Of a stretch of 32,454 bases of DNA, positions 3,001-6,000 are shown in pieces. The position numbers are program-made. Within the stretch, counting starts at the first letter, position 1; the number at the start of each line of letters is the position of its first letter. This stretch comes from a virus. Its lineage: Duplodnaviria > Heunggongvirae > Uroviricota > Caudoviricetes. The DNA lies in the IMG/VR virus record IMGVR_UViG_2874945390_000003, one strand, 5' to 3'.

Positions 3001-6000
3001 GCCATCAACGCCCACCACCGGAACGATGCCGTTCTGCTTATCAGGGAAGGCGTAAATTTCTTTCGTCCACGGATTAAGGCCGTACTGGTTGGCGACGATC
3101 AACAATGCGATGAACTGCGCATCGCTGGCATCACCTTTAAATGCCGTCTGGCGAAGAGTGGTGATCAGTTCTTGTGGGTCGACAGAATCCATGCCGACAC
3201 GTTCAGCCAGCTTCCCAGCCAGCGTTGCGAGTGCTGTACTCATCCGTTTTATACCTCTGAATCAATATCAACCTGGTGGTGAGCAATGGTTTCAACCATG
3301 TACCGGATGTGTTCTGCCATGCGCTCCTGAAACTCAACATCGTCATCAAACGCACGGGTAATGGCTTTTTTGCTGGCCCCGTGGCGTTGCAAATGATCGA
3401 TGCATAGCGATTCAAACAGGTGCTGGGGCAGGCCTTTTTCCATGTCGTCTGCCAGTTCTGCCTCTTTCTCTTCACGGGCGAGCTGCTGGTAGTGACGCGC
3501 CCAGCTCTGAGCCTCAAGACGATCCTGAATGTAATAAGCGTTCATGGCTGAACTCCTGAAAATGGCTGTGAAAATATCGCCCGCGAAATGCCAGGCTGAT
3601 TAGGAAAACAGGAAAGGGGGTTAGTGAATGCTTTTGCTTGATCTCAGTTTCAGTATTAATATCCATTTTTTATAAGCGTCGACGGCTTCACGAAACATCT
3701 TTTCATCGCCAATAGAAGTGGCGATAGTGAATTTAGTCTGGATAGCCATAAGTGTTTTATCCATTTTTGGGAACTCCTGGCTGATTAAGTACGTCGATGA
3801 GTCGTTTCCATCCGTCACGTAATTTACGGGTGATTCGTTCAAGTAAAGATTCGGAAGGGCAGCCAGCAACAGGCCACCCTGCAATGGCATATTGCATGGT
3901 GTGCTCCTTATTTACGCTTTAAATTGCTCCGTGTATTCACTCGTTGGAATGAATACACAGTGCAGTGTTTATTCTGTTGTTTATGCCAAAAATAAAGACC
4001 AACTATGCGGCCTCGGAAGGAAGTCCAATCATCTTATTCAAATCTTCTACCCGTAAAGCAGGAAGTGCTGTACTTGCTTTATCTGCTTCTTTTGGTAGCA
4101 ATTCTTTGCTTTCAGGCCAAACTTCAATAAGTCGCTTAACTGTTGTGACTGAGTTCAAAGCAGCCCATACATTTGATTCGATATCCTTTTTCCTGGCTTT
4201 AAGTTTTTGTTGCAATGCGCAGATTTCATCAAACCTTTTTGTTATTTCGTGTTCTGCGCTAAACATGTATTTATCTCTGGTCGGAGTAGGGAGCAATATA
4301 TCTTCGCCGTTGCCGTCTTTCCCATATGAATACCATCCAACCCTTCTGCCAGATACAGTCAGATAAATTGAAGTAGAACGAACATCGCATGAGTAAAATG
4401 AACATCCCATCTTTTCAAGTTCTTCACTTATAGCTACCAACTTGGATGATAACTGATCCACTTCCTCAGTTTTCTTCTTCCCGCCAAACGCAACAACTCT
4501 GGCGTCAAGTGCAAGCTGGTTCTTTAGCTTTGTTACTTCTTCAAGTTCAGTGAACACCCCGGACTTAATTAAAGCGTTGCGTGCTATTACTTCTTTTATT
4601 CTCGTTGTTAAGCGGATTGATGACATATTAATTCCTCTCAAATAAGTGGTTTGCTGCCTGATTTCATTTTCTGGCGACCAACACAAGTCATCTTGCTGTC
4701 AGCTGTTTGGATTTCCTGTAGCCTGCCGCGTAAAGAGCTACGTTTGGAAGACATACACCAGTTTCTGGTTGCTTATGTCCAAACTCATTCGCGTACACAA
4801 TGGCCGCTCGCTCCAGATTGCGTCTGTATTCTTTCTGCTGCCAGATCACGTCCTGTGCCATGAACTTAATTGGCTTAGCGTCTTCTATGCGCTCAGGCGT
4901 TTCGTGAGTACCTTTAGCCTGAATCTGCGCTCTGCTTAGAGTGGGGCGGTGTAATACTTCTGAACTTATTGCTTCTTCGCGGGCCAGTACGCCGTTAGCT
5001 AATGCCTTTGCCTTTAAACGCTCACGACGACGAGAACGTGAATTGCCTTTGAACTGAGTTCTGCGTGTCATATGGACCTCCTGATGAACTTTGGTGGTGT
5101 GGTAGGTGGGAGACCCATTTTGACCTGTTTCGGCCTACTTCAATTCGGCAATAGTCCCGCAGGCCTCGCCGCTTTACGTGCGACATATTCCCGTCCATGA
5201 ACCCTTCACCACACCCCAAAGTTCACTTTGGTTATTGCGCTTTGTCAGCGCCGTAGATTCATATTCGAATCGTTGTATATTCACCGCCCTGGTGAGTAGT
5301 GCGTCCTGCTGATGGCTTAAAGATAACCTAGGTTATAGCAGTGGTTAATAACTTAATTTATGGATTCTAATAAATAAGTTATAAGTGATGGATAATAAAG
5401 GTATTTTATTTTTGTAAATGTTGCGGATTGGTCGGTATTGGAAGGGGGGCGCTGTATTGCTGGCGTGTTGGTTCGTGGTTTACCGCATTTGCGGCTGTTA
5501 AATATGGGGGACGATCGCGAGGCAAAGAAAATCCGGCGCGGAAGCCGGGTTTGAGATTTAGTTATTTTCAGCAGCTCGGATAAGAGCGGAAGTGCTGACG
5601 AACATGTTCGAGCTCACCGAAACGTATGCGGCAGTAACTGCGCACATAAACTGGCTTGTCGTGTTCGTAGATGAAGTCATCGCGATTAACATCGTGAGCC
5701 ATAGCTTTTCTCCTGTTTTTGTATACAGCCTGTTTACCCGAACAGGTTGTAGTTTGTTGGGAGAACCGCTATCCTTGGCTTGCGGTTGCCAAGGGTGTAG
5801 CGGTAGGTAATCCTCCATACACTTCGGAAATACTGGAAATATTTCCGACCCCAAAAGCCCCGTTGCCGCGGGGCTTTATTCTTTTGTTCCGCCATCAATC
5901 ATAGCAAAAGATTCCACAATCAGACTGATACGCTTGGCTTCATCTTTTGTCAGGTCGCGAGGCAGGTTGCCAATGGTGACGATAAGATCTCCGCGCAATG

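Follow-up and report, generated by a model that had tools for sequence, protein, structure and literature searches.

A conserved 44-codon gene as the payload of a mobile cassette in the immunity region of a lambdoid prophage

The stretch of DNA considered here, IMG/VR record IMGVR_UViG_2874945390_000003 (32,454 nucleotides; hereafter the window), is a lambdoid prophage. Between the cI operon and the left operator (OL), its minus strand carries a 44-codon open reading frame (ORF) at 5568-5702, which, on comparative grounds, is a genuine and strongly conserved small protein gene under purifying selection. This mini-ORF is the terminal, exchangeable payload of a mobile cassette, the constant parts of which are a 177-aa partner protein and a structured leader RNA. 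Comparison of homologous loci directly supports purifying selection at the protein level, fixed synteny and spacing, covariation in the leader, and the replacement of the payload behind the same leader. The explanation that we favour, with some reserve, is that the mini-gene is a leader-gated accessory payload of a portable cassette, expressed in the lysogen.

Work on phage immunity regions goes back decades. To judge from the libraries and literature searched, the breadth of the mini-protein family, the obligate cassette, the exchange of payloads and the leader RNA are new; the mini-ORF itself is already in the databases as a hypothetical protein. What had looked like a tidy ORF is now a well-supported small gene, and its product belongs to a wide family outside all domain databases. 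A structured RNA of ~140 nt with solid covariation is added to the immunity region of Shiga-toxin (Stx) and related prophages, and two public annotations are corrected, namely the antisense call VT2-Sap22 and the wrong-frame call XECs114.

A protein-coding gene of 44 codons

Most of what the initial annotation, made from the sequence alone, had said of this ORF was borne out, although it had overlooked the obligate partner gene, the structure of the spacer and the exchangeability of the mini-ORF. The 44 codons are found on the minus strand, from the ATG at 5702-5700 to the TGA at 5570-5568 (the stop codon lies within the interval), and encode MAHDVNRDDFIYEHDKPVYVRSYCRIRFGELEHVRQHFRSYPSC. A Shine-Dalgarno (SD) sequence, AGGAG, can be read from the sequence at 5710-5714 (minus strand). 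It is separated from the ATG by the 7-nt spacer AAAAGCT, which places its final G 8 nt from the A of the start codon, the distance originally given. The GC-rich hairpin and U-rich tract reported 3' of the stop were also confirmed: CCGGCTTCCGCGCCGG (5548-5533) is followed by ATTTTCTTTG, forming an intrinsic terminator (5523-5548, minus strand) in which a CCGGC..GCCGG hairpin precedes a U-rich tail. The placement of a tidily bounded ORF between the immunity terminator and OL is correct, because the mini-ORF is framed by a hairpin at 5877-5854 on one side and by operator-like palindromes (about 5323-5400) and the start of the N gene (5071) on the other.

The label "unannotated" holds only for the ORF track used at that stage, because GenBank and RefSeq list the product as a hypothetical protein. 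An identical protein is recorded for E. coli (WP_000929756.1, RefSeq) and for phage SH2026Stx1 (AVO22781.1), and the product matches phrog_21154 over its full length (E 1.9e-31, residues 1-44 on profile positions 1-47 of 47); mini-ORFs of this kind are called type A below. These entries hold the sequence only, whereas the family reaches far beyond phages.

The length of the mini-ORF alone is not significant, since 69 ORFs of at least 25 aa overlap the same 4.5 kb (3500-8000). It is lifted above chance by the conservation of its reading frame and position; such conservation in related prophages had been proposed as a check, and it was clearly found. E. coli FDAARGOS_944 and phage SH2026Stx1 both encode the identical protein at this position, and in a 481-nt aligned stretch (window 5420-5900) the single base difference within the mini-ORF is synonymous. 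The SH2026Stx1 sequence diverges sharply past the mini-ORF terminator, which marks a mosaic boundary directly after it. The Klebsiella homologue is 93% identical at the protein level; over the first 42 codons, 12 codon changes are synonymous and three non-synonymous, and 14 of the 17 nucleotide differences fall at codon position 3 (p = 4.7e-5). When all six frames were compared, the amino acid identity between the window and Klebsiella was 39/44 in the sense frame versus 27-34 in the other frames, and that between the Sakai and Oslo homologues was 38/40 versus 30-35. Among ten type A cassettes, the ratio of non-synonymous to synonymous substitution rates (dN/dS) was 0.04-0.14, with the pairs saturated or nearly so at synonymous sites.

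It was also considered that the ORF is no functional unit at all, and that the region acts as RNA only or carries a gene on the opposite strand. The plus strand does hold a 72-aa ORF with a GTG start at 5592-5810; VT2-Sap22 is the annotation given to its Sakai counterpart. Several homologues have open frames on both strands, the antisense ORF of NC_000902 was a GeneMark prediction, and the hairpin in front of the mini-gene (P1) has its better U tract on the plus strand. Against this, the sense frame is the best conserved of the six and shows the low dN/dS values given above, the antisense frames contain stops in some homologues, and the antisense product is without a family match. We regard this alternative as very improbable. 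The 72-aa ORF was rejected because frame conservation favours the sense frame, and the VT2-Sap22 call (NC_000902; locus L003, 2408-2569, minus strand), being an antisense ORF, looks wrong.

A cassette with exchangeable payloads

The partner gene (5876-6409, minus strand; phrog_2602) belongs to the ECs1184 / VT2-Sap23 family and is the last gene of the cI operon. Cassette loci were gathered via homologues of its 177-aa product. A type A mini-ORF was found 167-201 nt downstream of the partner gene, on the same strand, in 57 of the first 62 loci, and behind the partner gene in 8 of 14 metagenome loci. The cassette is not confined to lambdoid immunity regions: it is also present in a Klebsiella element that is not lambdoid and has single-stranded DNA-binding protein (SSB) and primase genes nearby, where the mini-ORF stands behind a 175-aa homologue of the partner protein. 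Linkage and spacing hold down to 37-45% identity between partner proteins and across payload types. A search of plasmids yielded no cassette.

Other payloads can occupy the same slot. In Proteus prophages it is filled by an unrelated 57-aa ORF (phrog_33859), and at one viral and six metagenome loci by a Cys-rich ORF of 44-47 aa (type B, CxxC...CxC), which at locus L054 is followed by the same terminator. The type A, Cys-rich and Proteus mini-ORFs represent at least three unrelated payloads. Homology between types A and B was considered and rejected, as no profile similarity was detected (hhalign probability 0.6%). The terminator hairpin, CCCGGC..GCCGGGTTTT, is kept in all cassette types, including one with a different mini-ORF, and leader subtype and payload type assort independently. 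One further locus contains an insertion sequence (IS).

Two loci show further variations of the arrangement. Locus L080 (1990-2600) carries tandem units of leader and mini-ORF after one partner gene, the first with a type A and the second with a Cys-rich type B ORF, and the terminator behind the first ORF also serves as P1 of the second leader. In Yersinia phage YP3 (locus L151, 1501-2104) there is a 176-aa gene, presumably a homologue of the partner, and P1/P2 are retained at 92% identity to window 5804-5880. The remainder of the leader is absent, as is the mini-ORF, and the hairpin abuts the end of the gin invertase gene.

The structured leader RNA

Folding to the minimum free energy (MFE), RNAalifold and a covariance model delineate a structured leader RNA of subtype I at 5716-5853 (minus strand), in the spacer between the partner gene and the mini-ORF. 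It is preceded by the terminator-like hairpin P1 (5854-5877), which overlaps the stop of the partner gene. No strand is assigned to P1: its U tract is short on the minus strand and better on the plus strand, on which a terminator scan calls it. On the minus strand, RNAalifold places P2 at 5846-5826, the 5' strand of P3 at 5816-5813 and 5804-5798, the 3' strand of P3 (also the anti-SD strand) at 5772-5760, and P5 at 5751-5724. The long helix P3 encloses P4 (5794-5773), a variable hairpin.

The spacer and start region of the window fold with an MFE of -76.1 kcal/mol (z = -5.7). With RNAalifold on plain MAFFT alignments, P1-P5 recur with compensatory changes, both in 14 diverse spacers and in each of the two subtypes; P1 is conserved with compensatory C-G/U-A changes. 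A covariance model (R1) derived from the seven subtype I spacers detects every subtype II spacer (E 1e-12 to 2e-4), and also the tandem second copy in L080, before the Cys-rich ORF, and a remnant in L140. In the alignment of 17 leaders, 88% of cells are paired versus 34-49% with slid partners, double changes are seen in 19 of 36 pairs versus 7-11 for slid controls, and the covariation score is 0.353 versus 0.04-0.11, with 0 of 500 shuffles reaching the observed values; this alignment was fitted to the model, which inflates the figures. The same helices are already visible in the MAFFT-only alignments made before model fitting. Pairing is kept in 88% of cells even though sequence identity to the window drops as low as 52-63%. 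Since G-U pairs outnumber A-C pairs 29 to 12, the sense strand is the one that folds.

The leader corresponds to no RNA family in Rfam 15: nothing was found at 5500-5900 at gathering thresholds, and relaxing the cut-off to E values of 10 gave only matches below threshold, with the terminator hairpins at their centre. The leader covariance models do not recognise the Sakai and Oslo spacers; in the Proteus and L054 spacers their top matches lie at the right place and are not significant (E about 0.6-0.7). The leader was not found upstream of family members that stand alone. A 15-mer scan of viral contigs for the leader core gave mostly chance matches, of which the covariance model retained one new locus, L140. 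There, at 4919-5110 (minus strand), a remnant comprising P1-P4 is found without a partner gene or a mini-ORF. A gene that lies upstream of it has the LexA-box-like CTGTATATACATACAG in front. The remnant is flanked by a 15-nt direct repeat, TTTCTGCAATTTCAG, and may be the scar of a cassette insertion or loss. At locus L013 (Symbiopectobacterium, 3600-3660), an insert of ~30 nt in P4 repeats the 5' end of the mini-ORF (ATGATGTAAATCGCGACGATTTCATCTAA), which suggests past recombination between leader and ORF.

Predicted sequestration of the start site

The 3' strand of P3, UAGCGGUUCUCC (5771-5760), has two predicted, alternative partners: the 5' strand of P3, and the SD together with the start codon, GGAGAAaaGCUAu. 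The MFE fold of the window includes the anti-SD:SD helix, the predicted pairing probability of the SD is 0.99, and the predicted "off" fold is 8.9 kcal/mol better than the "on" fold. Among the 17 leaders, the anti-SD:SD helix is paired in 77% of cells versus 35-45% in slid controls and contains two covarying pairs, and in Klebsiella the SD-start region of the leader is a near copy of the P3 5' strand. When the "on" and "off" states were folded under constraint, their energies differed by -11.6 to +16.7 kcal/mol across leaders. Because these energies scatter so widely, bistability is not a general property of the leader.

These predictions also qualify the strong SD of the initial annotation. 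The AGGAG motif stands in the window and is typical of subtype I leaders, whereas subtype II leaders have a weaker CAGGT-type sequence and the SD of the window is itself predicted to be base-paired. The fold models make it likely that the leader gates translation of the mini-ORF in this window. That grade is given for the window only, because SD pairing is not universal and the energies scatter; gating as a property of the leader class is unproven.

The mini-protein family

A 40-aa homologue that is 57% identical over the C-terminal half is found at the same position in VT2-Sakai, many Stx phages and Salmonella phage Oslo, and the Sakai homologue also matches phrog_21154 (E 5e-8). When a five-member profile was run against 1.84 billion representative proteins, 278 clusters were obtained at E <= 1e-3. 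Nearly all are 30-50 aa long and share the pattern V.V..Y.R.R.G..E.V..H.RS.P. Distant members stand alone at various sites, including a Rahnella prophage (between the Q and holin genes, on the opposite strand), a defence island and ordinary chromosomal neighbourhoods.

The mini-protein has no match in Pfam, NCBIfam or PADLOC (PADLOC-DB 2.0). It is hydrophilic, with an acidic N-terminal half, a basic C-terminal half and no membrane helix. An AlphaFold2 (AF2) model shows a three-stranded antiparallel sheet with a predicted local distance difference test (pLDDT) score of 79. Neither Foldseek searches of PDB and BFVD nor a profile search against PDB sequences returned a significant match; a beta meander of 44 aa is too generic.

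The scattered Cys and His residues pointed out in the initial annotation are present (C24, C44; H3, H14, H33, H37), but no Cys is conserved and only H37 is invariant; the Cys of Sakai-type mini-proteins stands elsewhere in the sequence, and many relatives lack Cys altogether. The hint therefore leads nowhere. Two Cys and four His in 44 residues might recall a metal-binding or redox peptide, a notion that is scarcely credible given the loss of both cysteines among relatives and given that the Cys-rich mini-ORFs found in the slot are a separate family. A Pfam zinc-finger match is also lacking.

The partner protein

The partner protein consists of a helical N-terminal domain, a Lys-rich linker and a nearly invariant C-terminal part of ~45 aa. 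It is DNA-binding-like, in that the N-terminal domain appears to resemble the core-binding (SAM-like) domain of tyrosine recombinases; there is no catalytic domain, and the protein has no Pfam, NCBIfam or PADLOC match. Its Sakai homologue ECs1184 (ORF23 of the Stx2 phage Sp5 / VT2-Sap23) is 39% identical and occupies the same position after cI, with the 40-aa mini-protein homologue 173 nt further downstream. ECs1184 was one of two early Sp5 genes that could not be deleted from the lysogen, and the authors concluded that its deletion is lethal and that the gene is needed for a stable lysogen (PMC5155283). This link raises a testable question: is ECs1184 needed because of a restraint on the downstream mini-gene? 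The two loci differ in that the Sakai spacer is missed by the leader model, and the published reports concern the Sakai subtype and not that of the window.

In the Lys-rich linker, the partner gene of the window contains a run of eight A (A8; 6081-6088, minus strand), and three IMG/VR loci (L032-L034) have one A fewer. The missing base breaks the gene precisely where the N-terminal domain gives way to the conserved C-terminal part, and may reflect a sequencing error, a pseudogene or a slippage site.

Expression

A promoter scan of 4600-8200 on both strands returned no sigma-70-like site; it also missed the expected phage promoters, so it was insensitive and counts as weak evidence. Spacer alignment and reading by eye, again on both strands, revealed no conserved -35/-10 boxes. 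Read-through of P1 is assumed rather than shown, because no promoter of the mini-gene was found. P1 is probably a bidirectional, leaky terminator, and the simplest interpretation is transcription that runs on from the cI operon.

Some expression data exist for Sakai. The "novel gene" XECs114 of Hücker et al. 2017 lies on the same strand and overlaps the last 53 nt of the mini-ORF homologue and its 3' untranslated region (PMC5597208). In LB medium, 452 reads per kilobase per million (RPKM) of RNA and 135 RPKM of footprints were reported for it, a ratio of 0.30 (PMC5597208). These values indicate that the Sakai region is transcribed in the lysogen and engages some ribosomes at a low ratio. The footprints, used here without frame resolution, cover the last 53 nt of the homologue and were assigned by the authors to another frame. 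XECs114 looks wrong, as a +1-frame ORF overlapping the 3' end of the real 40-aa gene. Searches of the supplements of Hücker et al. 2017 with the peptide or DNA of the Sakai homologue gave no match; the region was found by its coordinates, as XECs114. Tree et al. 2014 describe no small RNA at the Sakai locus.

Possible functions of the cassette

The order on the minus strand is the 177-aa gene, P1, the ~140-nt leader with P2-P5, the mini-ORF and a strong terminator, placed in the slot between cI and OL that in lambda holds rexAB. In the explanation that we favour, the mini-gene would have no sigma-70 promoter of its own and would rely, in the lysogen, on transcripts of the cI operon that read through P1. 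The leader would gate its translation, as the 3' strand of P3 chooses between the 5' strand of P3 and the SD/start region, with the "off" state favoured in the window. The mini-protein would be a low-dose accessory effector in the lysogen, acting in exclusion, addiction or lysogeny maintenance, and the partner protein would probably belong to the same pathway. If the cassette is only a dose-controlled accessory gene, the result is modest and still useful for prophage annotation.

Several observations speak against this explanation. In leaders before Cys-rich ORFs, the predicted SD pairing is only 0.07-0.55, and the alternative helix has G-U and A-C pairs in equal number (17 each). The covariation of the leader is overstated by the model-fitted alignment. 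With its fair U tract (UUUU), P1 of the window may be an efficient terminator, and the Sakai expression data transfer by analogy only, since the models fail to recognise the Sakai and Oslo spacers. Distant members of the family stand alone, lacking both leader and partner gene, and phage YP3 keeps the presumed partner gene and P1/P2 with no mini-ORF. ECs1184 is an unconvincing RNA binder, with a TRAPP false discovery rate (FDR) of 0.065 and a polynucleotide kinase (PNK)/crosslink signal like that of the GFP control (PMC7618764). Neither the fold nor the sequence of the mini-protein yields a function.

The cassette might instead be a toxin-antitoxin or abortive-infection-like module, in which the mini-protein is toxic, the 177-aa protein is its antidote or repressor (acting on leader RNA, DNA or protein), and loss of the 177-aa gene would release the toxin. 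Such a module would account for the failure to delete ECs1184 from Sp5. It also agrees with the travel of the cassette as a unit between unrelated elements, with payloads as interchangeable as arms-race effectors are expected to be, with a long structured leader that hides the SD as in type I toxin mRNAs, and with the location in the rexAB slot beside a DUF3024 gene that matches a candidate defence system. However, the mini-protein is hydrophilic and has no membrane helix, neither it nor the partner matches PADLOC, and many genomes hold a family member by itself. Neither an antisense promoter nor an antisense RNA was found (the plus-strand promoter scan was insensitive, and Rfam gave no antisense family above chance). 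The non-deletability concerns the Sakai subtype, which is only 39% identical, and ECs1184 is not a strong RNA binder (PMC7618764). Two of the three IMG/VR loci with the A8 deletion in the partner gene keep an intact mini-ORF and the third has an IS, a pattern that could also reflect sequencing error. On balance this is unlikely. A more specific proposal, a new addiction or abortive-infection module in which a protein with a core-binding domain controls interchangeable mini-protein effectors via the leader RNA, is to be regarded as unlikely. If true, the leader would be a new class of cis-regulatory RNA and the mini-protein the founding member of an uncharacterised family of ~280 clusters.

Another possibility is that the mini-gene is an independent moron with its own, unrecognised promoter in the spacer, that its linkage to the partner reflects shared descent, and that the hairpins are an ordinary 5' untranslated region and terminator. 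Morons, as Juhala and colleagues are said to have described them in 2000, reportedly have a promoter of their own upstream and a terminator downstream and are inserted between conserved phage genes. The mini-gene of the window is bounded by terminators on both sides, its relatives stand alone at classic moron sites such as the Rahnella Q-holin interval and the defence island, and YP3 has the presumed partner gene but no mini-ORF. In the window the terminator is present, whereas the insensitive scan found no sigma-70-like promoter on either strand and the aligned spacers have no conserved -35/-10 boxes. The persistence of linkage and spacing at 37-45% partner identity and across a change of payload, and a spacer structure conserved far beyond its sequence, are also difficult to reconcile with independence, and we consider this reading rather unlikely.

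The leader-gated accessory payload that we favour can be compared with several known systems. In lambda, rexAB lies between cI and OL. The mini-gene shares with rexA-rexB and morons the slot, the orientation of cI, a terminator before OL and, probably, expression from the prophage. It differs in that the mini-protein is unrelated to RexA and RexB in both sequence and fold, a dedicated promoter was not found, and the three-part cassette also exists outside lambdoid phages. Type I toxin mRNAs (hok, tisB, zorO, dinQ) likewise have a small ORF behind a structured leader of ~150 nt with a helix able to hide the SD/start region, but the mini-protein is hydrophilic and beta-rich in the AF2 model and is no small hydrophobic membrane toxin. 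No antisense RNA or promoter was found, and P1 would terminate a plus-strand transcript. The arrangement is not that of a type II toxin-antitoxin pair either, as the two genes are ~170 nt apart with a terminator-like hairpin between them and neither product has a Pfam, NCBIfam or PADLOC match. With leaders that sequester the SD (riboswitch expression platforms and RNA thermometers) the leader has in common two exclusive helices that share a strand, one of them covering SD and AUG, but it has no Rfam match and its sequestration is weak or absent in about half of the cassette leaders.

Neighbouring features of the window

Upstream of the cassette, the cI-type repressor gene (7715-6978, minus strand) is divergent from cro (7776, plus strand). 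Between cI and the partner gene lies a DUF3024 gene (6940-6599, minus strand), which matches PDC-S43, listed in PADLOC as a candidate single-gene defence system (E 3.7e-42); a candidate defence gene thus also sits between cI and OL.

On the other side of the mini-gene, an AT-rich stretch at about 5323-5400 contains operator-like palindromes that resemble those between cI and cro, for example ATAACCTAGGTTAT on the OL side and ATAACTTGGGTTAT on the cI-cro side; ATAAC(N4)GGTTAT palindromes are common to the OL region (5323-5400) and the right operator (OR) region (7699-7775). The OL/pL module has a much wider distribution than the cassette: about 100 other E. coli genomes match the 147 nt at 5300-5446, the start of the query, at 86-88%. 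The N gene occupies 5071-4688 (minus strand) and is followed by a gene for a 227-aa protein (4003-4686, minus strand), which in a near-identical prophage is listed in RefSeq as "Nmad5 family putative nucleotide modification protein"; in that prophage N itself is only a remnant.

Elsewhere in the window, Rfam matches were obtained to the lambda cIII thermoregulator (3852-3910, minus strand), to isrK and the C4 antisense RNA side by side (15046-15234, plus strand), to CssrB, a Shigella chromosomal small RNA (30919-31098, plus strand), and to IS009 (31855-32058, plus strand).

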